Below are positions 27,497 through 50,192 of a DNA stretch of 64,000 nt, piece by piece. The DNA is from Allosphingosinicella sp. (GTDB lineage Bacteria; Pseudomonadota; Alphaproteobacteria; Sphingomonadales; Sphingomonadaceae), in assembly GCA_036386475.1 (NCBI GenBank), contig DASVVQ010000046.1, positions 8,624-72,623 on the forward strand, read 5' to 3'. Positions within the stretch are counted from its first letter, which is position 1. Each line of letters starts with the position of its first letter. Both the position numbers and the translations under genes were made by a program. The notes beneath the pieces are model-generated. The model worked only from the letters and a program-made list of their open reading frames with translations. It did no database searches and was not told where the DNA came from.

Positions 27497-28132
27497 TCAG
27501 GCCGCTTCGCCGTTCCTGCCGAGCTGGCGGCCGAGGTCGTCGAGCGTTGCGGCGATATGGTCGCGGGTGAGGGCGCGTACGCGGTAGAGGCGGCGGCCGA
27601 GCCAAGCTTCGAGCAGTTCGCGGTGCTCCCCGGCGGCGCGATCGGCGCGGCCGCCGGGCTCGAGATGGACGCGGACGTAGCGCTCCGAAAGCACGTGGAG
27701 GCGGGCAAGTATCTCCGTCGTCACCGCCTGGCCGGAGGGGCGCACGAGCGCGATGTGGAAGGCGCGATTGCGGGCGCCGACGTCCGCTCGCGCCTGCGCC
27801 ACGGCGCAAGCGAGCTCGGCGGAGGCCGCTGCCGCCTCCGCTCGGTCCGCGTCGGCTGCGGCGAGCGCGCCGGCGGCGGCTGCGTCCGGCTCGAGCTTGA
27901 GGCGCAGCTCGTACACTTCGCGCGCCTCGGCGGCGCTCAGCGGCCGGACGAAGAAGCCGCGATTGGGCTCGGCGCGGACGAGGCCTTCCTGCTCGAGCCG
28001 GGCGAGAGCCTCGCGGAGCGGGATCTTGCTGATGCCGAGCTCGATCGCGAGCGCGTCCTGCCGGATCGAGCGGCCGGCGGCGACCGTGCCGGACAGGATT
28101 CGGTCTCTTACTTGGTCGAGAATGCCTGTCAT
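27497..28132 (-). CDS. GntR family regulator (FCD domain)
   Basis: HTH IRQDALAIELGISKIPLREALARLEQEGLV plus an FCD domain; last gene of the hydroxyproline operon. Confidence 0.9.
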   Translation of the reverse strand: MTGILDQVRDRILSGTVAAGRSIRQDALAIELGISKIPLREALARLEQEGLVRAEPNRGFFVRPLSAAEAREVYELRLKLEPDAAAAGALAAADADRAEAAAASAELACAVAQARADVGARNRAFHIALVRPSGQAVTTEILARLHVLSERYVRVHLEPGGRADRAAGEHRELLEAWLGRRLYRVRALTRDHIAATLDDLGRQLGRNGEAA

Positions 28133-29130
28133 GTGACCGAGAAGCCGCGCCAGAAGGGATCTTCCCGGTCCACCCAGATGGTGTTGAAGCCGGTCGAGAC
28201 GGCCGAGCCCTCGATCGAAGGGATGATGGCGGAATGCGCGCCGACCGCGGTCGCTTCCTCGACGCGGCCGAGGAAGCGCGATCCGATATAGCTTTCATGG
28301 ACGAAGGAGTCGCCGACATCGAGGCGGCCGGCGGCGGCGAGATGGGCAAGGCGCGCGGAGGTGCCCGTGCCGCAGGGGCTGCGATCCAACGCCCGCTCGC
28401 CGTAGAAGACGGCGTTGCGGCCGTCCGCGCCTTCCCCTTTGGGCGCATCGGCCCAGAGGACGTGGCTGACGCCGCGGATACTCTCGTCCAGCGGATGGAC
28501 GGGCTCGAAGGCTTCGCGCACGAGGGCACGGATCGTCCGGCCGTGCTCGACCAGCTGCGACGCGCCGAGATCGTCGAGCCCGGCATAGGGCCCCTGCGGC
28601 TCGACGATCGCGTAGAAATTGCCGCCATAGACGACGTCGACCGTCAGCGGTCCGAACCCCGGCACGTCGATTTCGATGCCGCGGGCAGCGACGTAGGAAG
28701 CGACGTTGCGGATCCTGACCGCAGTCACCTTGCCGCCAGCTTCGCGATATTCGATGCAAATCCTGCCGGCGGGGACGTCGACCGTCAGCCGCCCGGGCTG
28801 GCGCGGCGCGATCAGGCCGTGCTCGAGGCCGAAGCTGACGATGCCGATCGTGCCGTGGCCGCACATCGGCAGGCAGCCGCTCGTCTCCATGAACAGGATC
28901 CCGCAATCGGCCTCCGCGCTCGTCGGCGGGTAGAGGAAACCGCCCGACATCATGTCGTGCCCGCGCGGCTCGAAGCAAAGACTGGTCCGGATCCAGTCGA
29001 AGCGCTCGAGGAAGTCCTGCCGCCGCTCCGACATCGTCGCCCCGCGCAGCAAGGGCGCCCCGCCCGCGACGAGGCGGACCGGGTTTCCCGCGGTGTGCCC
29101 GTCGATGCAGAAGAAGGTATGGCGCGTCAT
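28129..29130 (-). CDS. 4-hydroxyproline epimerase (proline racemase family)
   Basis: IDGHTAGNPVR, EPRGHDMMSG; both catalytic Cys present (MCGHGT, DRSPCGTGTSA). Confidence 0.92.
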   Translation of the reverse strand: MTRHTFFCIDGHTAGNPVRLVAGGAPLLRGATMSERRQDFLERFDWIRTSLCFEPRGHDMMSGGFLYPPTSAEADCGILFMETSGCLPMCGHGTIGIVSFGLEHGLIAPRQPGRLTVDVPAGRICIEYREAGGKVTAVRIRNVASYVAARGIEIDVPGFGPLTVDVVYGGNFYAIVEPQGPYAGLDDLGASQLVEHGRTIRALVREAFEPVHPLDESIRGVSHVLWADAPKGEGADGRNAVFYGERALDRSPCGTGTSARLAHLAAAGRLDVGDSFVHESYIGSRFLGRVEEATAVGAHSAIIPSIEGSAVSTGFNTIWVDREDPFWRGFSVT

Positions 29131-30047
29131 TCGACGACGGCGGCGGCGAGGGCCGGACGCGTTCCTGCCGCCTTTTCCACCATCGCGGTCACCTCGGCGC
29201 GGCGGGCGCCCGCAAGCCGCATGCGTGGCATGCGCACGCGCTCCGAGCCTCTCCCCATGAGCTGCTCGGCGAGCTTGATCGACTGGACGAGGTCGTGCTC
29301 GGCATCGAGGTGGAGGAGCGGCATGAACCACCGATAGATGGCACGGGCAGTCGCGAGATCGCCGCGCTCGAAGGCGGCGAAGAGCGCGACAGACTCGCGC
29401 GGGAAGGCGCTGGTGACGCCGGAGACCCAGCCGGCGGCGCCGAGGATGAGGCCCTCGAGCGCAATGTCGTCCAGGCCGGCCATAAGGGTGAAGCGATCGC
29501 CGAAGCGGTTGACGAGATCGGTGAAGCGGCGCGGGTCCGGCGCGCTCTCCTTGATCGCGGCGACGTTGGCCACGTCCGCCAGCCGCTCGAGCACCTCGAA
29601 GCCGATCGCGACGCGATAGGCGGGCGGATTGTTGTAGAGCATGATCGGCAGCGAGGTGGCCGCGGCCACGGCGCGAAAATGTTCGTACAGCTCCTCCGGC
29701 TTGGGGACGTAGACCATGGCCGGAAGAAGCATCAACGCATCGACACCGATCGCCTCGGCGTCGCGCGCGAAGGCGATCGCGCGGGGCGTGGTCAGCTCCG
29801 AGACTCCGGCGACCAGCGGCACCCGACCGCCGACCGCCGCGACGGCCGCACGCAGGATCTCGCGCTTTTCGGCAGGCTCCAGCGAATTGTTCTCGCCGCA
29901 GGTGCCGAGGAGGATGAGGCCGTCGACGCCGTCGGTTACGAGCGCGCGCTGCACGGCTGCGGTCGCGGCGAGGTCGACCGACAGGTCCTCGGCAAATTGG
30001 GTCGTCGCGGCAGGATAGACGCCGTGCCAGAGCGGACGTGAAGTCAC
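29127..30047 (-). CDS. DapA-like protein, probable pyrroline-4-hydroxy-2-carboxylate deaminase
   Basis: WHGVYPAATTQF, LGTCGEN, MLYNNP, AIKES. GTG start with GAGGA RBS; coupled to the epimerase gene. Confidence 0.85.
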   Translation of the reverse strand: MTSRPLWHGVYPAATTQFAEDLSVDLAATAAVQRALVTDGVDGLILLGTCGENNSLEPAEKREILRAAVAAVGGRVPLVAGVSELTTPRAIAFARDAEAIGVDALMLLPAMVYVPKPEELYEHFRAVAAATSLPIMLYNNPPAYRVAIGFEVLERLADVANVAAIKESAPDPRRFTDLVNRFGDRFTLMAGLDDIALEGLILGAAGWVSGVTSAFPRESVALFAAFERGDLATARAIYRWFMPLLHLDAEHDLVQSIKLAEQLMGRGSERVRMPRMRLAGARRAEVTAMVEKAAGTRPALAAAVVE

Positions 30048-30070
30048 GAGCTGCTTCCTCATTGCTGGTA

Positions 30071-30087
30071 GAAATCGTATACTATAT
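30071..30087. promoter_or_regulatory. AT-rich divergent promoter with GTATAC palindrome, candidate GntR operator
   Basis: gaaatcGTATACtatat in the short gap between the divergent hydroxyproline genes. Confidence 0.3.
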
Positions 30088-30097
30088 GGCCGCTCGC

Positions 30098-31336
30098 ATG
30101 TCAGCCCCCGCGAAGATCGGCAGCGTCATCGTCGTCGGCGGCGGCTCCATCGGCATGAGCTGCGCGCTCTCGCTGCAGTCTCGCGGCATCGCGGCGACCG
30201 TGGTCGATCCCGGGACGCTGCGACCGGCGTCGCTCGGCAATGCCGGCCATATCGCCGTCGAGCAAGTGGAGCCGCTCGCGTCCCTGGCGACGCTGCGGAG
30301 CTTGCCGCGCATGCTCTTCTCGCGCGGTGGGCCGGTCTCGCTCATGCCTCGCGAGATCGGGGCCTGGCTGCCCTTCGCACTTCGCTTCGTGCGTGCCGCG
30401 ACGCCGTCGCGCTTTCGCGCCGGGAGGACGGCGCTCTCCAGCATTGCTGCAGCCGCATTGCCGGCGTGGCGGCGCCAGCTCGAGCGCGCCGGCGCGGCCG
30501 ATCTGCTCCTCGACTGCGGCCATTATGCGGTGTGGGAGACCAGGGACGCCGCCGCATCGGGGCGTCGGCGCTGGGCCGAAACCGATACCGGCGCGGTGAT
30601 CGTGCGCGACGCGTCCGGCGACGAACTGGAGCGAGTTGCCGCGCTGCTGCGCGTCCCGCTCGCAGGTGGAGTCCGCTTCGACGGGAGCGCGCAGATCGCC
30701 GATCTCGACCTGCTCGCCGCTGCGCTCCTGCACGCGTTCGACGCCGGCGGCGGCGTGCGCGTGCGCGGCGCCGCGGGGCGAGTCTCGCCGCGCTCGGTGA
30801 CCCTCGAGACGGGCGAGCGACTGGACGCGGACGCGGTGCTGGTCGCGGCAGGCGCGGCGTCCGGCCGGCTGCTTCCGCGACATTTCGTGCCGATGATCGC
30901 GGAGCGCGGTTATCACCTCCAGACGGCCGAGAGCGAATGGCCGCTCGATCTGCCGCCGGTGGTGTTCGAGGAACGCTCGGTCGTCGTCACCCGCTTCCGC
31001 TCCGGCCTGCGCGCGGCCGGCTTCTTCGAGTTCGCCCGCGCCGACGCGCGGCCCGATCCGCGCAAGTGGGCGCGGCTGCGCGCGCATCTCGACGCGCTCG
31101 GCATCTGCGTTCCGGACGCGGCCGAGTGGACCGGCGCTCGCCCTACCCTCCCGGATTATCTCCCGGTGATCGGGCGCACCAACGAAGGCCTGTTCTATGC
31201 CTTCGGGCACCAGCATCTCGGCCTCACCCTCGCCGCCGCGACCGGCGAGGCGATCGCCGCGCTCGCCGCTGGCGAAGCGCCCGAATTCGATCTATTCCCG
31301 TTCAGGATCGAGCGGTTCGGGAGGCGGCGCGGGTGA
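30098..31336 (+). CDS. FAD-dependent D-amino acid dehydrogenase, probable D-hydroxyproline dehydrogenase
   Basis: VIVVGGGSIG, ASLGNAGHI, ERGYHL, WTGARPTLPDYLPVIG, AFGHQHLGLTLAA; context with the epimerase. Confidence 0.82.
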   Translation: MSAPAKIGSVIVVGGGSIGMSCALSLQSRGIAATVVDPGTLRPASLGNAGHIAVEQVEPLASLATLRSLPRMLFSRGGPVSLMPREIGAWLPFALRFVRAATPSRFRAGRTALSSIAAAALPAWRRQLERAGAADLLLDCGHYAVWETRDAAASGRRRWAETDTGAVIVRDASGDELERVAALLRVPLAGGVRFDGSAQIADLDLLAAALLHAFDAGGGVRVRGAAGRVSPRSVTLETGERLDADAVLVAAGAASGRLLPRHFVPMIAERGYHLQTAESEWPLDLPPVVFEERSVVVTRFRSGLRAAGFFEFARADARPDPRKWARLRAHLDALGICVPDAAEWTGARPTLPDYLPVIGRTNEGLFYAFGHQHLGLTLAAATGEAIAALAAGEAPEFDLFPFRIERFGRRRG

Positions 31337-34416: not shown

Positions 34417-35118
34417 CTATTCCTGCTCCGGCGCCGCTCCGCCCACCACCATCTCGACCAGCCGCGCCAGCGCGGTCGTGTCGAGGATGACGATGCGCCG
34501 GCGCTCCTGCGCGAGGATGCCCTTGTCGGCGAGCTCGCCCATTTCCCGGGTCACGGCTTCGCGGTGCGTCCCGATTCGGGCGGCGAGGTCGGCATGGGTC
34601 GGCGCAGGCTCGATGGCGACCCGGGTCGAGTCGCTGCCGGCGCACAGGCGCAGCAACTCGCAGTGAAGGCGGCTGCTGACACGCAGCGCGTTGAGCTCGA
34701 ACACCTTTTCGGTCAGATCTCGAACCTGCGCCGTCAAGCGTCGGGCGAGCCAGATCGAAGATTCCGGATCCGCCGCGACGGCTTCGCGGAAGGCGGCCGC
34801 GCCGATGCTGGCGAGGGTACAGCTCGAGACCGCGACGATGGTGGCGGAGCGCGGCTGGCCGTCGATGGCGGCGAGCTCGCCGAACATTGCGCCTTCGCCC
34901 AGGCTCCTCAAAATGACTTCGCGGCCGGCGAGCGAGTAGAGCGTCACCCGCACACGGCCCTTGAGCACGACATAGACGTGATCCGAACGCGCGCCGGACG
35001 ATACCAGCGTTCGCCCCGGCTTCGCGCTCATGGTTGTAGCAGCCGCCCAGAGGCGCTCGGCAAGCGCTCTCGGCAGCCCGCTCATCGCCGGCGGCAGGCC
35101 GAACGAAAGGGTGTTCAC
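34417..35118 (-). CDS. Crp/Fnr family transcriptional regulator
   Basis: GTG start with GGAGG RBS; cNMP-binding cassette FGELAAIDGQPRSAT; HTH THADLAARIGTHREAVTRE. Confidence 0.92.
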   Translation of the reverse strand: MNTLSFGLPPAMSGLPRALAERLWAAATTMSAKPGRTLVSSGARSDHVYVVLKGRVRVTLYSLAGREVILRSLGEGAMFGELAAIDGQPRSATIVAVSSCTLASIGAAAFREAVAADPESSIWLARRLTAQVRDLTEKVFELNALRVSSRLHCELLRLCAGSDSTRVAIEPAPTHADLAARIGTHREAVTREMGELADKGILAQERRRIVILDTTALARLVEMVVGGAAPEQE

Positions 35119-35261
35119 CGGCTCCTCCCTAGTCCGCCCAGTTTGCGCCACCGAAGGGCGACATGCAATTGCTACGCAACCGGAGCGAGTTTTTGCTTGT
35201 ATCGCGTCCGAAGTGGGCAAATGATAAGCAACTACCGGCAAGACCATCGAGGGGGAGGTCC

Positions 35262-38200
35262 ATGCCTGCACAGCCTCTCGAGGCCTTGAACGTCCATGCC
35301 GCGCCAACTGACGGTCCGCGGCGTCGCTATCTTTCGATTCTTTTTTCGGACCTGTCTGAATCGACCCGCCTTGCCAGCCGGCTCGAGGCCGAAGAGTATT
35401 TGGACCTGCTCGCACGCCTCGGGGCCGTCTATCATGCCGTAGTCGCGCGCCACGGCGGCACTGTGGCGCAGATCAGCGGAGACGGCATGCTCGCTTTGTT
35501 CGGCTATCCGGAAGCGCGCGAGGGCGACGGCCGCCGCGCGGTGGAGGCGGCGCTGGAACTCGATGCGGCCGTCGCCTTGCTTGGGACGGGCGGGCGCGGC
35601 GAGGGACCGCTCCGCCTCCATAGCGGCATCCACGCGGGGCTCGTGCTCCTCCAGAGCGGCGACCAATGCCGCGGCCGCTTCGAATTGCTCGGCTGCGCTA
35701 CGAACATCGCCTCGCGGCTGTGCAGTGTTGCCGCTCCGGGCGAAATCCTGGTCAGCGAGGAGACGTTGGGGCCCGAGCGTCACCTGTTCGCAACGAGCGC
35801 GCGCAGCCGGCTGCGCTTGCGGGGCGCCGACGAGCCGGTGCTGACGCTTGCAGTCACTGGACGCGCCGTCGAGGCGCGGAGCGAACCGGCGCCGTTCGTC
35901 GGGCGCGACGCAGAGCTCGCGGCTCTCGCCGCCGACTTCGCCGCGGCCAGAGTCGGCGGGCCGCGAATTACGATCGTCGAGGGTCCGCCTGGCGTCGGCA
36001 AGACCCGCCTCGTCGAGGAATTCCTGCGGCGAGCCGGCGCCGAGGGCTGCGCGATCCACCGCGGCAACTGCGAATCCTCGGCCGAGCCGCTCCGCCCGTT
36101 TCTCGAGATCGCGCGCTCGCTGCTCGGCGTCGCCGGCGACGATCCGCCCGACGTGGACACGGCCGCGTGTGCGCTCGCCGGGATCGATCCTGGGCTTGCG
36201 GACCTGGCGCCGGCTCTTTGCCGGCTGCTCTCGCCGCGGCGCCAATCGACGCCCGGCGACGCGGCCGCGCTCGCCGAGCTGATCGCGCACGCCGGGACGC
36301 TGGGACCGCTCGTCCTGTTCGTCGACGACTGGCACGCGGCCGACGATGCCAGTCGCGAGATGATGGCGCTGCTGCGCACCCTCGAGAAGGGCGCTGTGCT
36401 CGTGCTCGCGACCGCCCGGCCCGATCCAAGGATCGACGGACTATCGGAGGGACTCGAGCGCCTGCGTCTGGCGCCGCTTACCGCGGCGGAGACGGCGGCA
36501 GCGGTCGCCGGCTTGCTGCCCTCCGCCGATCCATTCACGGTCGAGGAAATCGGCGCGGCTTCGGGCGGCAACCCCCTCTTTATCGAGGAGCTCTGCCACG
36601 CAATGGCGGCCGGAGAACGGCACGAGCGCCCGCAGGGCTGCACGCCCTGGCTCGCCAACCTCATCGAATCGCGCGTGTCGCGCCTGCCGCCGGCGGCCGC
36701 CGAGCTCCTTCGCGTCGCCGCGGTGATCGGCAATTCGGTGCCGGCTTGGCTGCTCGAAGCGATCGCCGGCCGCGGCGAGGGCGACCCGTTGGTCCGCTCG
36801 CTCGCCGAGGCGGATTTCCTGTACCCGGGGGAGCGCCCGGGGACGCTGCGCTTCAAGCACGGCATCACTCGCGAGGTGATCTACGATTCGGTCGGCCTCC
36901 ACCAGCGCCGCGGCCGTCACGCCGATATCGCAGCGGCTCTCCGCGCCCGTGCGTCGGCGGCCGGAGAGGACGAGCCTGTCGAGGCTCTCGCTTACCATTT
37001 CGGCGCCGCGGACGAGCTAAACGCAACGGTCCTCTACGCAGAGCAGGCCGGCGACAAGGCGATGGCCGCCTCGGCTCTGGACCGTGCACAGGGCTATTAC
37101 CGCGCCGCACTCGACGCGCTCGAGCGGCTCGAAGATTCGGACGAAAACGCGGCGCGCTGGGATCGGATCGCGCAGCGCTTCGGTCTCGCGGGAGTGTTCG
37201 ATCCGGCCCGCGACCAGCTGCAAGTGTTCGAGCGCGCGATCGAGCGCGCCGGCGCGCGCCGCGACCCGGTCGCGCTTGCCTGGGCAGAATATTGGCTCGG
37301 CTACATCAATTACGGCCTCGGCGAACCGGAAACGGCGAGCGACCATTGCTCGCGCGCGCTCGAATCCGCTCTCGGAACCGGCGACGACCGCCTCGTCGTC
37401 CAAATCCGCGCCACGCTCGGCCAGGCCAAGGCAGCCGCCTGCGACTATCGCGGCGCCCTGCTGCTGCTCGACGAAGCGATCGAGGTGAAGCGCCGCCACC
37501 GCACCGGCCAGCACGCCTCGGTCGGCTTCGCCTATTCGCTTGCCTCCAAGGCATTCGTTCTCGGCGACATGGGCCGCTTTGCCGAGGCGGAGGCGGGTTT
37601 TTCGGAGGCGATGGACGCGGTGCGCGGCGCCGATCACGAGGTCGAGGGGTCGGTGCTGTGCAAGCATGCCGGCGTCTACCTTTGGCAGGGACGGCTCGAG
37701 GAGGCCCTGCGCTGCGCTGAGGAGGCGGAGCGAGTGGCGGTGCGCGTCCACAGCGTCTATCTCTATGCGATGAGCCGCGCGCTCGGCAGCTATGCGCTAT
37801 GGTCGCTCGAGGCCGGCGACGGCCCGATCGAGACCCTGGTCGAGGCGACGGGCTGGCTCGAGGCGAAGGGCCGCGGACTCTACGCCTCGCTCCCCTATGG
37901 CTGGCTCGCCGATGCTCTGGCGAGGCGAGGCGATCCCTCCGGCTCCCGCCGTTACGCCGCCCGCGCCTTGCGCCGCGCGGAAAAAGGCGACCGCCTCGGC
38001 GAGGCGATGGCGTGGCGCGCCATGGCGCGGTCGGCGGCGGCGAGAGGCGCACGGGAAACCTCGCACCGGTGCCTGGAGCGCGCCGAAGCTGCCGGCGCAG
38101 CCCGCGCAGCTGCGCACGAAGCCGCGGCGACGCGGCTCTGCGCCGCCGAGATCGCCGCGGCATCGGGCGACACCGAGCTCGTGCCTCGGCTCGACGCGAT

Positions 38201-38270
38201 GGCCCGTGCCGAAGCCGAGGCGCGCCGCCGCGCCGCTCGCATCAGGTGCCGGGCAGGCGCGGGATCGTAA
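35262..38270 (+). CDS. Class III nucleotide cyclase - AAA/STAND-like ATPase - TPR protein
   Basis: LFSDLSES, AQISGDGMLALFG, GIHAG, GCATNIASRL; Walker A EGPPGVGKT, Walker B LFVDDWH; SGGNPLFIEEL; FKHGITREVIY; C-terminal helical repeats. Confidence 0.9.
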   Translation: MPAQPLEALNVHAAPTDGPRRRYLSILFSDLSESTRLASRLEAEEYLDLLARLGAVYHAVVARHGGTVAQISGDGMLALFGYPEAREGDGRRAVEAALELDAAVALLGTGGRGEGPLRLHSGIHAGLVLLQSGDQCRGRFELLGCATNIASRLCSVAAPGEILVSEETLGPERHLFATSARSRLRLRGADEPVLTLAVTGRAVEARSEPAPFVGRDAELAALAADFAAARVGGPRITIVEGPPGVGKTRLVEEFLRRAGAEGCAIHRGNCESSAEPLRPFLEIARSLLGVAGDDPPDVDTAACALAGIDPGLADLAPALCRLLSPRRQSTPGDAAALAELIAHAGTLGPLVLFVDDWHAADDASREMMALLRTLEKGAVLVLATARPDPRIDGLSEGLERLRLAPLTAAETAAAVAGLLPSADPFTVEEIGAASGGNPLFIEELCHAMAAGERHERPQGCTPWLANLIESRVSRLPPAAAELLRVAAVIGNSVPAWLLEAIAGRGEGDPLVRSLAEADFLYPGERPGTLRFKHGITREVIYDSVGLHQRRGRHADIAAALRARASAAGEDEPVEALAYHFGAADELNATVLYAEQAGDKAMAASALDRAQGYYRAALDALERLEDSDENAARWDRIAQRFGLAGVFDPARDQLQVFERAIERAGARRDPVALAWAEYWLGYINYGLGEPETASDHCSRALESALGTGDDRLVVQIRATLGQAKAAACDYRGALLLLDEAIEVKRRHRTGQHASVGFAYSLASKAFVLGDMGRFAEAEAGFSEAMDAVRGADHEVEGSVLCKHAGVYLWQGRLEEALRCAEEAERVAVRVHSVYLYAMSRALGSYALWSLEAGDGPIETLVEATGWLEAKGRGLYASLPYGWLADALARRGDPSGSRRYAARALRRAEKGDRLGEAMAWRAMARSAAARGARETSHRCLERAEAAGAARAAAHEAAATRLCAAEIAAASGDTELVPRLDAMARAEAEARRRAARIRCRAGAGS

Positions 38271-41200
38271 CGATCAAGGGCGCGGGCAGCGCCTCGATCC
38301 GTCCGACCTCGAGCAGCGCGCACAGCATGCCTGTCATGGCACCCATCGCAAAGGGAAATGCGGGGCAGGCGTGGGTCGGGTGCGGCGTCGCCCTGCGGTT
38401 GCCGCCGAAGACGGGGTAAATGGCGTGATCGTCCGAAGCTTGCGCTTCGGCGGTGGCCGAGGCGATGCCGAGGCAGACCTTGTCGCCTTCGCTTATTGCC
38501 ACTCCGCGGAGAGTGGTCGCCTTCTTCGCCGTCCGCCAGAGGGCGTCCGGCGCCGGGCGCTTGCGCATCGCATCGATGAGGGGCGTCCGCAGCACCCCCT
38601 GGACCGCCGCATGATCGCGCGATGCGGCGTCGACGGCCAACAGGTCGTGCTGGATCCGCCATAGCGTGCCGTGGCTGAGCCAGTCGTAGAGCGTTCCGCG
38701 CAGGCAGCCGTCGGCCGGCGGAAGGAACCCCATCATGACGCCGATCACGGTGCGCGCGATCATGTCCGCCGCGTTTTCGGTGCCGAGAAACTGCTGATAG
38801 ATCGCGTTGGCGATCGGCGCCTGCGGGGCACTGCCGGCGGCGATCCGCTTCTCGTAATGGCGCCGCGCCGCCTCGCGCAGCGCCGTGCCGTCGGCCTGGC
38901 CGCGGCGGGTGAACCCCGCAATCGGGTCGACGTAGAAGATGAAGCTCGAGGGCGCCATGAAGTCGCCGGGGCAGACCGGCCTGCGATCGCCTTGCGGCGT
39001 CCATTTCCACGAGCCGTCCAGGATGTCGTGCCCGGGCTGGGGCTCGACGAGCGGCGGCTGGTCCGGGAAGCCGAAGGTGCCGCGGCAGATGAGCGCGAGC
39101 ACACCGGCAATATAATCGTGGACGAGATCGATCTTGACCGGCCGGTCGGGCTGCGGGAAGTTTCTCGCATAGATGCGCTGGAAGTTTTCCAGATATCCAG
39201 CCCCTGCCTTGCGGGCGGAGGCAAACGCCGCTTCCTCGGTCACCATGGCGATCGCCCCGTTGGCGATGCGGGACTCGTTCCAATACTCATCGCCGGCGTC
39301 GCGCCCGAGATAGATCTCGCCGATCGAATCGCGCATCCGCGGCATGTAGCCATCGACCGAGAACCTCTCGTCGTCGCCCAGCACCTCGTCGATGAGATCG
39401 CGCGAGCCGACGAGGACGACCTCCTTGAGCCTGCCCTTCTCGTCCTTGGGCGGCCAGCCATAGGGGACCTTGATGGCACCGCCGCGCGCGCGGATGGCGG
39501 CCCACACGCGTGGCCCGACATTGCGATCGTCGGGATCGCGGGCAGCGACGTCCTCGAAGCAGGTTTTCCAGGCGAGCGCCTGCGCCTCGGGATCCTGGGC
39601 CTCGATCGCGGCGATGATCTTTTCTCCCTCTTCGGCGGCGGACCCGGCGGGCGCGGCGCGCGGCGCCAATATGGCCTTCAGCCCGGATGCGGAGGGCACG
39701 AAAAGGTACGCGCCCCACTGCAGCTTCACATAGGGGTTCGGCATGCGCAGGCGGATCGTGCGATTCTGGAGGCGGAACACGAACGTCCGCGGGTCCTGGT
39801 CGCGGGCCGGGCCCATCAGCGGGTCGCTCTGGCACGAGGCCACGCGCGTGCTGTTGCCGCCGCTGATCCAGCTCTGCACGACCTCGAACTGCTCGGCGAT
39901 GCTTGCGTTGTAGGCCATGAACATGACCCCGCGCTCGCCGTCGAGCGGCGCATCGCGCGGCGGTCCGTAGGACATGCCGCGGCGCATGATCCGGGGAACC
40001 GGCCTGTCGAAATTCTCCTTCTTGTCGGTGCGCGGATTGGCCCGGCGGATATGCGACTGGAAGGGGCATTGCTGGCCGCGCAGGTCGGATTTGTAGTCGA
40101 AGTCGTTGGAAAGGGTGCTCGTGCCCTGGAGCAGCGGGCTTCCGTCCGGTCGCCGGCCCATCATCTTGCCGAGCAGGTCGTCCCGGAGCTGCGGATAGAC
40201 CGGGAAACCGTTGCGCGTGAGCTCGGCGACGGTCCGATCCAGAAACGCCTCGAGCTCTCCCACCTCCTGCTTGAGCTTGCGGATGACGAGGAAGGTGCCG
40301 TTGTCCCAATGCGCGTTCGCCCGCTGGGGCGGATCGCCGCGGTCGTTGCCGTAACCGATCAGCAGCTCGCCGAGGGCGACGCGATCGCGCTCGGGAACGC
40401 TGGTATCGGAGATCGCCACGGGCTGGCTGAAGCCGTCCAGAAAGCCGAAATGATCCTTGGCCACGGTCCTGTTGCTGCCGTCGCCCAGCCATGCGCGCCG
40501 CATCGACTCGACCGCGAGCAGCTCCACGCCGCTCGCGTCCGGCCCGGCGGCGAGGGCGGCGACCTTGGCTGCGAGGGGATGGAGCGGATCGCCGACGACA
40601 TCATGCCCGGGATAGTCGCTGTTGGTGCGCAGCTGGAGGACGAAGTCGACCTCCTTGAGCTCGACCGGCGGCGCCGCGGCATCGGCCGACGGTGCGCTTC
40701 CGCCCACATCGGCGCGGCACCGGCGAGGGAGCGCCCAGCGCCGGGGATGACTGTCGCCGGTGTCGCCGATCATGCCGGCCCGCGCTTCCATGCCTTCGAG
40801 AAATTCCTGCGGAAGCTGCGCCAGGGTGTCTTCGGATACGCCGAGCGCCCCCAGGCCGGCGAGGGTGAAGGCGAGATTGACGCTCACTCCGCCGTCCGGG
40901 AACGGCGCCGCCTCCGTGCTCAGCTTGAGCGTGCCGAGCCAGGCGCGTGCCTTCTCGGCATCGGCGATCCGCATCAGCATCAGGCAGCCGTGCGTCATCG
41001 GCTTCCCGTCGAGCTCGTAGCCGCCCACGATCCCGGTCTGGACCTCGGCCGGGTCGAAGCGAAGCCGCCCCTCGTCGCGCGGACGCGGAGGGGGCGGCGC
41101 GAGCAGCTCCAGATATTCCGCATATTTGTGCCTGACCGGCGCGGGCAGCTCCTTGGGATCCCAGTCCTGGAGGAGCTTGGCTGCGGCGCGCTTCAGGAAG

Positions 41201-41934
41201 CGGCCTTCCTGCGGATCGTCGGGGGGATAGAAATCGGTCAGCCGCCCGAGCGCGACCAGCGCCTGCAGACCCATGTCCATCGTCTCGGCGACGTTGCGCT
41301 TCTGCGCCGCCTTGGCGCGCTCGACCGGATCGACGGCGCATTCCGACATTGCGATCACGTCGAGGTTCGGCATCAGCGCGTCGCGATGGAGGCGCTCCAT
41401 CTGCGAAAGATACTGGACGTCCGCGATCGTATGATTGGAGGCGGCGTAGAAGAAATCGGTGTCGATCTGCACGCTCCGGACCCAGTCCAGATAGGCCGGA
41501 AACGAGGAGTCGCCGGCGACGACATAGCGCTCGGTGTTGCAGAAAAAGAGGTCGAGAAGCGGCCCGAGAGGATCCCAGACAAGCCGCATATAAGGTTCGA
41601 ACGGTCGGTCGAAGGCGACGGACAGCATCAGCATCTTCGGCCTGGCCCCGCCGGCGGGAAGCGATTGCTCGCCCACGACAGCCGCGTCGGCGTCGAGGAT
41701 GACGATGCGGAAATCGAGCAGCGACTGGATGCGCTCCGCCGATTCGACGAAGGGCTGGAACTTGGAATATTCGCGCGCCGTGGCACGGACCTTGAACAGG
41801 GCGTTCATCACCAGTCGCACGCGCGTCTCGTAGGTGACGGCTTCGAGCGCCGGAACGAAGCCCTGCCGGATCGGCGCCCAGAGCGTCAGGTCGCTGACAT
41901 TTTCCAGATGCTTGCTGCTGACCCTCTTGCCCAT
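38242..41934 (-). CDS. Three-domain heme protein: N-terminal unknown domain, Dyp-type peroxidase and cytochrome P450-like domain
   Basis: Dyp motifs HFGFLDGFSQP, SHIRRANPR, IMRRGMSYG, QFEVVQSW. P450-like C-terminus with DAMRKRP (ExxR position) and FGG...HACP Cys-ligand loop. One uninterrupted 1230-aa ORF. Confidence 0.8.
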   Translation of the reverse strand: MGKRVSSKHLENVSDLTLWAPIRQGFVPALEAVTYETRVRLVMNALFKVRATAREYSKFQPFVESAERIQSLLDFRIVILDADAAVVGEQSLPAGGARPKMLMLSVAFDRPFEPYMRLVWDPLGPLLDLFFCNTERYVVAGDSSFPAYLDWVRSVQIDTDFFYAASNHTIADVQYLSQMERLHRDALMPNLDVIAMSECAVDPVERAKAAQKRNVAETMDMGLQALVALGRLTDFYPPDDPQEGRFLKRAAAKLLQDWDPKELPAPVRHKYAEYLELLAPPPPRPRDEGRLRFDPAEVQTGIVGGYELDGKPMTHGCLMLMRIADAEKARAWLGTLKLSTEAAPFPDGGVSVNLAFTLAGLGALGVSEDTLAQLPQEFLEGMEARAGMIGDTGDSHPRRWALPRRCRADVGGSAPSADAAAPPVELKEVDFVLQLRTNSDYPGHDVVGDPLHPLAAKVAALAAGPDASGVELLAVESMRRAWLGDGSNRTVAKDHFGFLDGFSQPVAISDTSVPERDRVALGELLIGYGNDRGDPPQRANAHWDNGTFLVIRKLKQEVGELEAFLDRTVAELTRNGFPVYPQLRDDLLGKMMGRRPDGSPLLQGTSTLSNDFDYKSDLRGQQCPFQSHIRRANPRTDKKENFDRPVPRIMRRGMSYGPPRDAPLDGERGVMFMAYNASIAEQFEVVQSWISGGNSTRVASCQSDPLMGPARDQDPRTFVFRLQNRTIRLRMPNPYVKLQWGAYLFVPSASGLKAILAPRAAPAGSAAEEGEKIIAAIEAQDPEAQALAWKTCFEDVAARDPDDRNVGPRVWAAIRARGGAIKVPYGWPPKDEKGRLKEVVLVGSRDLIDEVLGDDERFSVDGYMPRMRDSIGEIYLGRDAGDEYWNESRIANGAIAMVTEEAAFASARKAGAGYLENFQRIYARNFPQPDRPVKIDLVHDYIAGVLALICRGTFGFPDQPPLVEPQPGHDILDGSWKWTPQGDRRPVCPGDFMAPSSFIFYVDPIAGFTRRGQADGTALREAARRHYEKRIAAGSAPQAPIANAIYQQFLGTENAADMIARTVIGVMMGFLPPADGCLRGTLYDWLSHGTLWRIQHDLLAVDAASRDHAAVQGVLRTPLIDAMRKRPAPDALWRTAKKATTLRGVAISEGDKVCLGIASATAEAQASDDHAIYPVFGGNRRATPHPTHACPAFPFAMGAMTGMLCALLEVGRIEALPAPLIVTIPRLPGT

Positions 41935-42047
41935 GCGCGGCTCTCCTGTTTCGCTCGTTCTGGCCCCGCGGCCGGCGGTGGGTCTGTGTCATTTCGCACA
42001 GGGCGTGGCGCGACTTCGGATACCCGAGGCAAAGCCTCGCAAGAGCC

Positions 42048-42479
42048 TCAGTTCTTGCCGCCCCCGCGGCGGCTCATCGCGTCGGCGACCGGATCGGCGA
42101 CCGTCTCGCCCGGCCATTCGCGGCTGCAGGCAGCGGTGATCGAGGCATGGAAGACGCTGCCCGGCGGCGCCGTCAGCGGCTCGCCGGACGGTCGCCAGGT
42201 GTCGCTCCTCCCGTCGGTCAGGAAGGCCGTCATCTCGAGCGTGCTGAGCTCGAAGCTGCGGCAGTCGGCGCGCTGGCGGGCGAGCGAGCGCGTCATGCCG
42301 CGCGGCGCATCGAGGAAGATCATCGTTTCCAGATATTCGACCCGGTCGCCGCTGCGGTTCACCGATTCGGCATCGACATAGGTCGATCCGCGCAGCGTGA
42401 CACCGGTCAGACGCCAGTCCGCGGCTTGGGCCGGGGCCGCGGCCAGCAGCACCGGCAGGCATAGGGCAAGACGCTTCAT
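42048..42479 (-). CDS. Secreted protein, surface-adhesin E-like
   Basis: Signal peptide; YVDAESVNRSGDRV...ADC...LxC pattern. Confidence 0.6.
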   Translation of the reverse strand: MKRLALCLPVLLAAAPAQAADWRLTGVTLRGSTYVDAESVNRSGDRVEYLETMIFLDAPRGMTRSLARQRADCRSFELSTLEMTAFLTDGRSDTWRPSGEPLTAPPGSVFHASITAACSREWPGETVADPVADAMSRRGGGKN

Positions 42480-42717: not shown

Positions 42718-48098
<5,381 letters not shown>

Positions 48099-48102
<4 letters not shown>

Positions 48103-50192
48103 CGGCAAGCGACTCCGAGCCGGCCGCGGACGTCGACGCGCCCGCCGTGGGCGCCGACGCGCTCGATCGGCCGCGAGTCCTGGTCGTCGACGACGACGAG
48201 CACAATCTGCTCGCCATCCGGACCGTGCTTGAGGACGTCGGCGACATCGTCATCGCGCGCTCGGGCGAGGAGGCGCTGCGCCACCTCCTCAAGGGCGAGT
48301 TCGCGGTCATCCTGCTCGACGTCTACATGCCGGGCATCGACGGCTACGAGACCGCGCAGATGATCCGCAGCCGCGAGCAGACCAAGCGCATCCCGATCGT
48401 CTTCCTCTCGGCCGTGAACAAGGAAACCGAGCATCTGATGCGCGGCTATTCGATGGGCGCGGTCGACTATGTGTTCAAGCCGGTCGAGCCGATCGTGCTG
48501 CGCTCCAAGGTCGCCGTCTTCGTCGATCTGTTCGCGATGACCAAGGAGATCCAGCGCAAGGCGGCGGCCGAGCAGGCTTTGCTCGACGCCAATTTGCGCG
48601 CCAATGCCGAGCGCCTGCGGATCGAGCAGGAGCTGCGCCTCGCCGAGCAGCGCCAGGCGGCGATCATCCAGTCCCTCCCGATCATCCTCTATCTCGAGGC
48701 GCTCGACGCCGCCCCGCGCGTGCCCAAGTTCGTCAGCGGCAATTTCTCGGCCCTGACCGGCTACGAGTTCGAGGAGATTCAGGCCTCGCCCAGCCTCTGG
48801 ATCGACCGGCTTCATCCCGAAGACCGCGACCGCGTCCTGACGGCGCTGGCGGGGCGCCCGCACGGCCGCTCGCTCTCAGTCGAATATCGCTGGCAATGCG
48901 CCGACGGCCAGTACCGCCACTTCCTCGACCAGGCGGTGCTGCTCAAGGATCCCGACGGCGTGCCGATCGAATATGCCGGTACGCTCCTCGACGTCACCCA
49001 TCGCCGTGAGCTGGAGAGCCAGCTCGTCCAGGCGCGCAAGATGGACGCGATCGGCAAATTGACCGGCGGCATCGCCCACGACTTCAACAATCTCCTTGCC
49101 GCCGTCCTCGGCGGACTCGGCCTGATCGAGCGCCGGCTGCCGCTCGAGGAGGAGCATTTGAAGGTCCTCAACATGACGCGGCGCGCGGCCGAGCAGGGCT
49201 CCGAGCTCGTCGGCCGCCTCCTCGCCTTCGCGCGTCGCCAGCAGCTCGAGCCGGCCTGCATCGAGATCGACGCGCTCGCGACCGCCGTCACCGACCTCCT
49301 CGCCCATACGCTGGGCGGGCTCGTCGAGCTCGAATGGAAGATGGACGAGGAGCTGGGCTGCGCCTTTGCCGACCAGTCGCAGCTCGAGCTCGCGCTCATG
49401 AACCTCATCATCAACGCCCGCGACGCCATGCCGGAGGGCGGCACGATCACCGTGCGGGCAGAGAACCGGACGGCGTCCGCCGATCCCGAGAGCGGGCTCG
49501 CCGCGGGCGACTATGTGGTCATCGCGGTCTCCGACGCCGGCTGCGGGATTTCGCCGGAGATCATGGAACAGGTGATGGAGCCCTTCTTCACCACCAAGGA
49601 GGTCGGCAAGGGCACCGGCCTGGGCCTGTCGATGGTCTACGGCTTCGCCAAGCAATCGGGCGGCGCGTTCCGGATCGAAAGCGAGGTGGGCATCGGGACA
49701 CGCGCCGAAATCTGGCTGCCGCGCGGTCTGGAGGAGGAGTCGGCGTCCCCCGCCGAGCCTGCCGGGAAAGAAGTCCACCGGGCACCAATAGAGGGTCTGA
49801 CGATTCTCGTCGTCGACGACCATGAAGGCGTGCGCACGACGACCGCGGCGCTGCTCTCCGATCTCGGCCACGACGTGATCGAGGCAGGGGACGGCCCGGA
49901 AGTCCTCGCCTTGCTGGCGAGCGATCCCGGCTGCTGCGACCTCCTCATCACCGATTATGCGATGCCGCACGTATCGGGCGCCGAGGTGATCCGGCAGGCG
50001 CGCGAGGTGCGTCCGGGGCTGCCGGCGATCATCATCACCGGCTATGCCGATGCCCAATCGATCGCGCGGCGCCCTGACGACGTCGTCGTCCTCGCCAAGC
50101 CGTTCACGCCCGCCCAGCTGCTGTCCGCGATCGAAGCGGTGCGTTCGGCACTGACCGCACCGGGGCAGGAGCTCCTCAAGGCCGCCTCCTGA
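48099..50192 (+). CDS. REC-PAS-HisKA-HATPase-REC hybrid kinase with OsaB-like N-terminus
   Basis: GTG overlaps the upstream [15 protein letters not shown]...[29 protein letters not shown] (IHPEDR-like, EYRW), [23 protein letters not shown]-terminal REC. Confidence 0.93.

Follow-up and report, generated by a model that had tools for sequence, protein, structure and literature searches.

Introduction

Proteins in which a peroxidase-type haem domain is followed by a C-terminal cytochrome P450 (CYP), with two haems in one polypeptide, are known from fungi, where the dioxygenase-cytochrome P450 (DOX-CYP) enzymes (PpoA, linoleate diol synthases, 8/9-AOS, 10R-EAS) make oxylipin signals; in these, the P450 half rearranges the hydroperoxide formed by the first domain without any redox partner. 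Here we describe a bacterial protein with a similar order of parts, encoded on the minus strand at positions 38242-41934 of a 64,000-nucleotide stretch of Allosphingosinicella sp. DNA (assembly GCA_036386475.1, contig DASVVQ010000046.1), which is called the window below and whose numbering is used throughout. The protein of 1230 aa (plus stop codon) consists of an N-terminal domain, a DyP-type peroxidase domain and a P450-like domain, and two haems are predicted for it. Since peroxidase-P450 di-haem fusions are already known from fungi, what is new is the DyP-P450 combination and its cyclase-STAND/Crp context, for which we found no bacterial counterpart described. The most robust new result is that the fusion gene is one half of an obligate pair, the other half being a gene for a nucleotide cyclase joined to a STAND ATPase.

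The likeness to the fungal enzymes extends to the Cys pocket, as fungal DOX-CYP di-haem fusions and self-sufficient CYPs retain an HxC pocket, which reads H(Q/A)C in 8-AOS and HAC in our protein (PMC13049297). The differences are nevertheless considerable. The peroxidase is a DyP, of the dimeric alpha+beta barrel superfamily, and the only peroxidase family detected, while the fungal DOX domain is of the cyclooxygenase/animal-haem-peroxidase type; there is an extra N-terminal domain of 295 aa; the P450 part is too divergent for the Pfam p450 model; and the protein, known here from sequence and models, is bacterial, cytoplasmic and obligately paired with the cyclase-STAND gene. Because its peroxidase belongs to a different superfamily, the fusion falls outside the fungal DOX-CYP family, and the likeness is one of logic only.

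A bacterial two-step haem route, from fatty acid to hydroperoxide to rearranged oxylipin and with a dedicated sensor-regulator, is the oleate-diol synthase system of Pseudomonas aeruginosa (PMC4496055, PMC6377657). Its two enzymes, PA2077 (oleate 10S-dioxygenase) and PA2078 (7,10-diol synthase), are RoxA-related di-haem cytochrome c peroxidases (Ccps), a group that also includes the rubber oxygenases (PMC4496055), and the oxylipin products act as quorum signals (PMC6377657). The present family resembles this system in that a RoxA-like di-haem Ccp takes part in its sister subfamily (see below), which we set beside PA2077/PA2078 by the wider group and not by orthology. It differs in that the second step in Pseudomonas is carried out by a di-haem Ccp and not by a P450-like protein, and the regulator there is not a cyclase-STAND/Crp pair.

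Among P450s, the obvious comparison is with the CYP74 allene oxide synthases and hydroperoxide lyases, prostacyclin synthase (CYP8A1) and thromboxane synthase (CYP5A1), the substrates of which are fatty-acid hydroperoxides or endoperoxides (PMC13049297). Like the domain described here, they combine a P450 fold and a Cys ligand with the lack of an O2-activating acid-alcohol pair and of a redox partner. On the other hand, there is no detectable sequence relation, other P450s match the predicted structure better, and no conserved distal Asn was identified in our family. Membership in CYP74, CYP8A or CYP5A is not supported, and the comparison would be one of functional analogy only.

Pairing with the Cyclase-STAND Gene

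In a scan with one genome per species, 389 stretches encoding a relative of the fusion protein were obtained, and all counts for genome loci given below refer to the 80 best-matching of these. In every one of the 67 loci with at least 2.5 kb of downstream flank, the cyclase-STAND gene is found downstream of the fusion gene, and in 65 of them the two are convergent. The divergence of the fusion gene and that of the cyclase gene from the window copies are correlated (r = 0.84). When the flanking open reading frames (ORFs) were clustered de novo, the only recurrent clusters were the cyclase (58 loci), a Crp-like regulator (29) and a patatin-like protein (9); no ferredoxin or reductase recurred among the clusters of the 67 related loci. 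Profile searches of the window's contig likewise gave no match for Fer2, Fer4_15 or Pyr_redox_2, so the absence of redox-partner genes, which the preliminary description had claimed for the window, holds for the contig and for the conserved neighbourhood as well.

In the window, the cyclase-STAND gene occupies 35163-38270 on the plus strand, with a likely start Met at 35262, and it overlaps the convergent fusion gene by 29 bp at the 3' ends. Its longest ORF (1035 aa) encodes a class III nucleotide cyclase (Guanylate_cyc) followed by AAA_16, the STAND ATPase part, and TPR repeats. This layout is shared with the mycobacterial Rv0386-type cyclases, which join a class III cyclase to AAA_16 and a TPR/MalT-like part; unlike those, our protein has no LuxR-type helix-turn-helix (HTH), its output apparently passing through a separate Crp-like factor. 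To our knowledge, a fixed partnership of such a cyclase-ATPase(STAND)-TPR protein with a haem enzyme has not been described. The Crp-like regulator gene (cNMP_binding and HTH_Crp_2 domains) lies at 34417-35118 on the minus strand, divergent from the cyclase gene; its longest ORF extends to 35415, with relatives aligning only from about residue 100. The trio of fusion, cyclase and Crp-like genes is also present in five metagenomic or genomic loci, with homologues that are 37-54% identical.

The family itself is patchily distributed over hundreds of proteobacterial species. Among the matches listed, more than 100 cluster representatives keep the three-domain architecture at 36-70% identity and approximately 100% coverage; their database names are only "Dyp-type peroxidase family" or "hypothetical protein". 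The best 80 loci come from Sphingomonadales, Bradyrhizobium, Caulobacterales, Hyphomonadaceae, many Burkholderiales (Roseateles, Variovorax, Rhizobacter, Pelomonas) and a few others. Within the window's own taxonomic family the gene is carried by 6 of 151 genomes, and the other genome of the genus lacks it, which makes it an accessory gene. A comparison of the insertion boundaries with that other genome was uninformative, its only counterparts of the flanking DUF885 gene being paralogues of 34-40% identity. A search of the literature library at hand returned no description of a DyP-P450 fusion, of a DyP joined with a patatin or a cyclase, or of the fusion and cyclase gene pair.

Crp-Type Boxes

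A CRP/FNR-type palindrome, TGTGTCATTTCGCACA (TGTG-N8-CACA), occupies 41985-42000 upstream of the fusion gene, 50 nt separating its promoter-proximal end from the ATG, and it is the only exact match in the 64 kb of the window. Regions within 260 bp upstream of the fusion gene were scanned for this pattern with one end mismatch allowed, and a box was found in 25 of 38 loci with a Crp-like neighbour and in 4 of 44 loci that lack this neighbour, while 0.019 boxes are expected by chance per region of the same size. This enrichment at loci with a Crp-like gene, together with the uniqueness of the box in the window, makes the fusion gene a likely target of the Crp-like factor, which would presumably be fed by the neighbouring cyclase.

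In four loci without a Crp-like gene in their flanks, namely an alphaproteobacterial metagenome-assembled genome (MAG; L056), two Bradyrhizobium MAGs (L060, L061) and a further alphaproteobacterial MAG (L065), the box TGTGAACCAnnTCACA stands 114-116 nt upstream of the fusion gene. Its conservation there suggests that the regulator is encoded elsewhere in those genomes.

Fused Domains and Their Predicted Haem Sites

The fusion gene was found at exactly the coordinates that had been given for it in the preliminary description, and its coding frame is supported by a GC content at third codon positions (GC3) of 0.86. Neither a signal peptide nor a hydrophobic stretch of membrane-helix length was found in the protein, which is predicted to be soluble and cytoplasmic and probably binds two haems. 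By residue, its three domains are the N-terminal domain (1-295), the DyP domain (296-759) and the P450-fold domain (760-1230). The Dyp and P450-like motifs that had been read from the letters were all recovered in place: GFLDG (497-501), SHIRRANPR with His628 and IMRRG with Arg651/652 in the former, and MMGFLPPAD (1067-1075), DAMR (1121-1124) and HACP with Cys1190 in the latter. An additional N-terminal domain had been noted as well and is present, although its size has to be corrected from about 230 to about 295 aa.

The DyP domain (39658-41049, minus strand) is closest to class V, the former C and D types. On the fusion protein, the Pfam model Dyp_perox_C scores 28.7 bits (cut-off 20), while DyP_N (17.1 bits, cut-off 27.5) and TIGR01413 (E 1.7e-24, 86.8 bits, cut-off 100.5) stay below their cut-offs. 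In a search of PDB sequences, class-V DyPs were the best matches, with E 3.5e-28 for the single sequence and 1.6e-62 for the family profile, and the closest solved relatives are the Deinococcus radiodurans DyP (8re3), an ancestral D-type DyP, DyP2, AnaPX and fungal DyPs. The AlphaFold2 model of residues 1-770 has a mean predicted local distance difference test (pLDDT) of 89.3 and a predicted template modelling score (pTM) of 0.90. With this model as the Foldseek query the top matches were all DyPs, led by 8re3 (E 4.5e-26, target-normalised template modelling score (TM) 0.77), and the two ferredoxin-like alpha+beta barrel halves of the DyP superfamily can be recognised.

Class-V DyPs (8re3, AnaPX 5c2i, DyP2 4g2c, fungal 2d3q and 4au9) thus share with the fusion DyP both the fold, at target-normalised TM 0.68-0.77, and the residues that define the superfamily, i.e., the Asp of GxxDG, the proximal His and the distal Arg. 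In our protein these are Asp500 in GFLDG (40432-40446), His628 (codon 40051-40053), which aligns with the proximal haem ligand in SHIRRMNPR of 8re3, and Arg651-Arg652 (39979-39984), which align with the distal arginine position of that structure; all coding positions are on the minus strand. Alignments of 40, 83 and 111 full-length homologues show Asp500, His628 and Arg648/651/652 to be invariant. With these catalytic residues conserved throughout, the DyP half looks catalytically competent. Unlike known DyPs, which are single-domain proteins of about 300-500 aa, it is embedded between two other domains, and it remains below the TIGR01413 cut-off.

The P450-fold domain (38245-39657, minus strand) was recognised from structure prediction, Foldseek and weak but collinear P450 sequence matches. 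The preliminary description had proposed an AlphaFold check of the P450 fold and of Cys ligation. AlphaFold2 predicts the domain with pLDDT 96.6 and pTM 0.94, with helices and sheets in the order of the P450 topology, and by profile alignment (hhalign) a Cys stands at the ligand position. Foldseek found 1648 PDB chains at E<=0.001, of which all 50 listed are P450s (TM 0.53-0.66), the best neighbours being BM3, CYP46A1 and CYP204A3; the identity to solved P450s is 12-15%. Sequence searches of the PDB with the C-terminal domain give E 0.09-0.7, nearly all of the matches being P450s and collinear. The Pfam model PF00067 (p450) has no match at E<=10 in the isolated domain and none in 40 homologues, and NCBIfam has no match at E<=10 for the C-terminal piece. 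In a genome-wide search, PF00067 recovered two other P450 genes and missed the fusion gene. Since every member tested escapes Pfam, censuses of P450s miss this P450-like family.

Alignment of the family profile with a canonical P450 of the same genome by hhalign places IDAMRKRPAP on IEETLRLYPPAP and FGGNRRATPHPTHACPA on FGGGPRVCVG, and it is by this pairing that DAMR (38563-38574), at the end of the K-helix, is assigned to the ExxR position and Cys1190 (codon 38365-38367) to the thiolate position. The Cys-ligand loop, FGGNRRATPHPTHACP, is encoded at 38362-38409. Its invariant residues F1176-G-G, H1188, C1190 and P1191 speak for a functional haem-thiolate site. Relative to FGxGxHxCxG, seven residues are inserted between FGG and HxC, so the P450 Cys-loop signature is present in a modified form only; the Cys loop of CYP74 also has an insertion. 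According to hhalign, the meander before the loop is about 18 residues shorter and lacks a PERF-type motif. Across the family the ExxR position reads xAMQxRP in consensus, and neither the Glu nor the Arg is conserved. MMGFLPPAD (38710-38736) lies in the middle of the I-helix (model helix 1055-1087, 33 residues), an equivalence that is based on helix position and not on structural superposition. At its centre the helix has the sequence G-x-x-x-G-F-L-P-P, in which G1065, G1069 and Pro1072 are invariant, and in place of (A/G)Gx(D/E)T there is no acid-alcohol pair, with Pro1072 at the Thr position; O2-activating P450s use that pair. All four coding positions are on the minus strand.

The domain therefore has the fold and the Cys ligand of the P450 superfamily and departs from it in ExxR, in the I-helix motif and in the Pfam model. 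To this extent the structural part of the earlier interpretation, namely a P450 fold with a Cys ligand and no I-helix acid-alcohol pair, has held up. As judged from its sequence, the domain lacks the usual P450 machinery in several respects: Pro1072, the unconserved ExxR, the loop insertion, the short meander and the want of a linked redox partner. For both the DyP and the P450-like domain, we infer haem binding from the conserved ligands.

The same genome encodes a second atypical P450 (locus L007, contig C30, 1417-2631; 404 aa), which PF00067 matches with E 1e-7 only, and which has the Cys loop HLGWGLHPCSG and the I-helix GSIDTT.

For the N-terminal domain (41050-41934, minus strand), AlphaFold2 predicts a ferredoxin-like beta-alpha-beta-beta-alpha unit and, after it, a helical region. 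Among its many invariant charged and aromatic residues are R38, E55, R76, F108-D109, E113, Y115, R117, W120, D128, Y137 and W151. Pfam and NCBIfam gave no match at E<=10, and Pfam gave none across 40 members; the family profile found only chance coiled-coil matches among PDB sequences. With the model of the N-terminal and DyP domains, the Foldseek results were dominated by DyPs in the PDB, and BFVD held nothing meaningful for the N-terminal domain. A phmmer search of 1.84 billion representatives yielded 484 proteins at E<=0.001; the best 150 of these are mostly long (approximately 1170-1630 aa), and every one examined belongs to the fusion family. The domain thus appears to be specific to the fusion family, without recognisable relatives. 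Two other origins, a duplicated DyP half and a relative of the P450-like domain, were tried and rejected (hhalign E 0.48 and 0.17).

Stand-Alone P450-Like Proteins

Homologues of the P450-like domain also occur as stand-alone proteins of 358-470 aa (85 matches), and in four independent loci such a gene is accompanied by the cyclase-STAND gene, as the fusion is, and by one for a RoxA-like di-haem cytochrome c. These sister loci are L091 141-3296 (L091/L092), L095 1948-5016, L097 8001-14078 (Vineibacter terrae) and L098 3221-9077. The cytochrome c of about 565-595 aa matches NF040606 over its full length with E 1e-165 to 1e-171; in the L091 copy, which was translated, a signal peptide and two CxxCH motifs were found. 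The Vineibacter terrae locus includes a Crp-like gene too, and a perfect CRP box precedes its P450-like gene by about 140 nt. In locus L093, only the P450-like gene follows the cyclase gene.

It can be seen that the peroxidase-type haem partner is exchangeable, being either a DyP or a RoxA-like di-haem cytochrome c. Since the DyP is fused, the RoxA-like protein separate and the cyclase constant, the invariant core consists of the P450-like domain and the cyclase-STAND gene.

Links to Lipases

Some members of the family carry additional domains. An N-terminal extension of about 340 aa is present in three collected members, and both of those that were scanned (P0176, P0202) have a Patatin domain there, above the Pfam cut-off (E 8e-17 and 3e-19). 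C-terminal extensions of about 330-390 aa that contain GDSW, GGGND and HP blocks occur in 23 of 253 collected members. Five of these extensions were tested, and all match GDSL-lipase models weakly, one of them above the PF00657 cut-off; the form in Bradyrhizobium cajani reaches 1595 aa. A patatin-like gene (approximately 670 aa) adjoins the fusion gene in 11 of the 80 genome loci, usually directly upstream and co-directional.

In some loci, the gap of about 1 kb between the fusion and cyclase genes had seemed to hold an extra gene; this was rejected, as the stretch is the GDSL-like C-terminal extension of the fusion.

Proposed Function and Alternatives

By analogy with the fungal DOX-CYP fusions, we tentatively take the protein for a cyclic-nucleotide/Crp-controlled, NAD(P)H-independent two-haem enzyme that acts on lipid (hydro)peroxides, and we hold this reading with somewhat less than even confidence. 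The preliminary description had guessed at a two-step peroxide or oxylipin enzyme from the motifs; the lipase fusions and neighbours and the swap to a RoxA-like partner now lend this idea independent, though indirect, comparative support. In the proposed sequence of events, the STAND protein would sense a cue and make a cyclic nucleotide, upon which the Crp-like factor would bind its box and turn on the fusion gene. The enzyme would then act on unsaturated fatty acids or lipid hydroperoxides, released by the fused or neighbouring patatin or GDSL lipase where there is one. The peroxide-activated DyP haem may form fatty-acid hydroperoxides through radical hydrogen abstraction, as in haem dioxygenases, in which case tyrosyl- or tryptophanyl-radical chemistry would be expected, or it may consume them. 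Finally, rearrangement of the hydroperoxide would fall to the P450-like haem-thiolate domain, which, like CYP74, CYP8A and the fungal CYP halves, would need neither NAD(P)H nor a redox partner. The output could be an oxylipin signal, possibly a ligand of the STAND protein and thus a feedback, or the repair of peroxidised lipid.

Several points weigh against this reading. We know of no DyP that acts as a fatty-acid dioxygenase, and such alphaproteobacteria are expected to hold mainly monounsaturated lipids. The nearest structural neighbours of the P450-like domain are ordinary monooxygenase P450s and not CYP74 or CYP8A. The window protein itself lacks a lipase domain, a search of the 64 kb for patatin genes was negative, and about 60% of the related loci have no lipase link. 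The N-terminal domain is strongly conserved and its role is left unexplained. In the sister subfamily, a signal peptide marks the RoxA-like di-haem cytochrome c for export, whereas none is present on the P450-like protein; the two would sit in different compartments, and direct substrate channelling is therefore unlikely in that variant.

A more elaborate form of the lipid-peroxide reading, which we regard as doubtful, would unite both subfamilies in a lipid-peroxide (oxylipin) signalling module. It would consist of the STAND cyclase and Crp circuit and a self-sufficient haem-thiolate hydroperoxide isomerase, with the first oxygenation provided interchangeably by the DyP or the RoxA-like di-haem cytochrome c, and the lipid product would be read by the TPR arm of the STAND protein. 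The fusion would then hold the first DyP to act as a fatty-acid dioxygenase.

If the lipid-peroxide reading is true, bacterial oxylipin signalling would extend beyond Pseudomonas, and DyPs would gain a known physiological role, which most of them still lack. The fixed pairing with the cyclase-STAND gene and the Crp box completes the circuit proposed here, which would run from a sensor by way of a second messenger and a transcription factor to the enzyme. The enzyme might also serve as a cofactor-independent catalyst for the oxygenation of fatty acids.

The composition of the invariant core can be read in another way, namely that the P450-like domain is not mainly an enzyme: it would sense NO, CO, H2S or peroxide through its haem-thiolate, or make or present a ligand for the STAND TPR arm, while the peroxidase partner conditions or protects it. 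What is invariant is indeed the pairing of the P450-like domain with the cyclase-STAND protein, the peroxidase partner being variable and, in L093, missing next to the cyclase and P450-like genes; a haem domain without catalytic function could also have lost the I-helix pair and ExxR. We nevertheless consider it unlikely, since the CRP box upstream of the P450-like gene makes this look like an output of the pathway rather than an input (although feedback could be accommodated), a gas sensor would not readily account for the recurrent lipase fusions, and a full-size P450 substrate-binding fold has been retained at very high model confidence.

The substrate might also be something other than a lipid. 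An inducible peroxide-driven oxidase or peroxygenase for an aromatic or lignin-derived, secondary-metabolite or xenobiotic compound, with both haems using H2O2, would be in keeping with the names of the closest solved structures, class-V DyPs typically oxidising dyes, phenolics and lignin models. The CYP152 peroxygenases are P450s that likewise have no I-helix Thr, with Pro in its place, and the window copy has no lipase. Against this, the protein is cytoplasmic and without an export signal, no catabolic or biosynthetic genes are conserved around the fusion, and the only recurrent enzymatic partners are lipases and the RoxA-like oxygenase, so that this alternative, too, is improbable in our estimation.

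A role in conflict with phages would have an Avs-like STAND protein with a cyclase effector signal infection, with the induced haem enzyme and lipases damaging membrane lipids and aborting the infection. The patchy accessory distribution described above would suit such a role, patatin effectors are common in defence systems, and one locus lies among TIR, patatin and RES-Xre genes. PADLOC reported weak Pycsar matches for the cyclase domain (PycC, E 1.5e-10) and the Crp cNMP domain (E 3e-17), but these cover generic cyclase and cNMP-binding domains only, and PADLOC has no match for the fusion protein. In Pycsar, the cNMP domain is fused to a TIR or membrane-disrupting effector, whereas the cNMP-binding protein here has a Crp HTH. 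Most neighbourhoods consist of ordinary metabolic and regulatory genes, no mobile-element or phage genes are conserved nearby, and transcriptional control through a Crp-type factor would be slow for abortive infection; we therefore rate this role as quite improbable.

Very improbable, finally, is a conventional O2-activating monooxygenase whose ferredoxin and reductase are encoded elsewhere and whose fusion to a DyP is incidental: bacterial redox partners are often unlinked, Fer2 proteins and many flavoprotein reductases exist elsewhere in the genome and the nearest structural neighbours are monooxygenases, but the I-helix Thr is replaced by an invariant Pro with no acidic residue before it, ExxR is not conserved, the seven-residue insertion in the Cys loop falls on the proximal face where a partner would dock, the fusion is conserved over hundreds of species, and no redox partner is linked in any of the 67 loci.

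Other Genes of the Window and Related Loci

Directly upstream of the fusion gene, the window contains a secreted or lipoprotein-like ORF of 143 aa (42048-42479, minus strand) with a signal peptide and a weak Adhesin_E match, for which no counterpart was found in any related locus. Just beyond the fusion gene there are two hybrid kinases. The first, at 42718-48102, is a hybrid histidine kinase of 1794 aa, the N-terminal part of which (approximately 900 aa) is made up of tandem near-identical repeats of about 90 aa that look HAMP-like by eye; it is followed at 47961-50192 by a second one, with PAS, HisKA and receiver domains. Both are absent from the conserved flanking-ORF clusters of the related loci.

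In an alphaproteobacterial MAG (locus L005, 1-5487 and 17900-19028), the module has two TIR_2 genes, a patatin-like gene and a RES-Xre toxin-antitoxin pair as neighbours, in a setting that resembles a defence island. At 28129-31336 of the window, genes for a proline-racemase-family protein, a DHDPS-family protein and an FAD-dependent (DAO) oxidoreductase have the look of hydroxyproline catabolism and are unrelated to the fusion.

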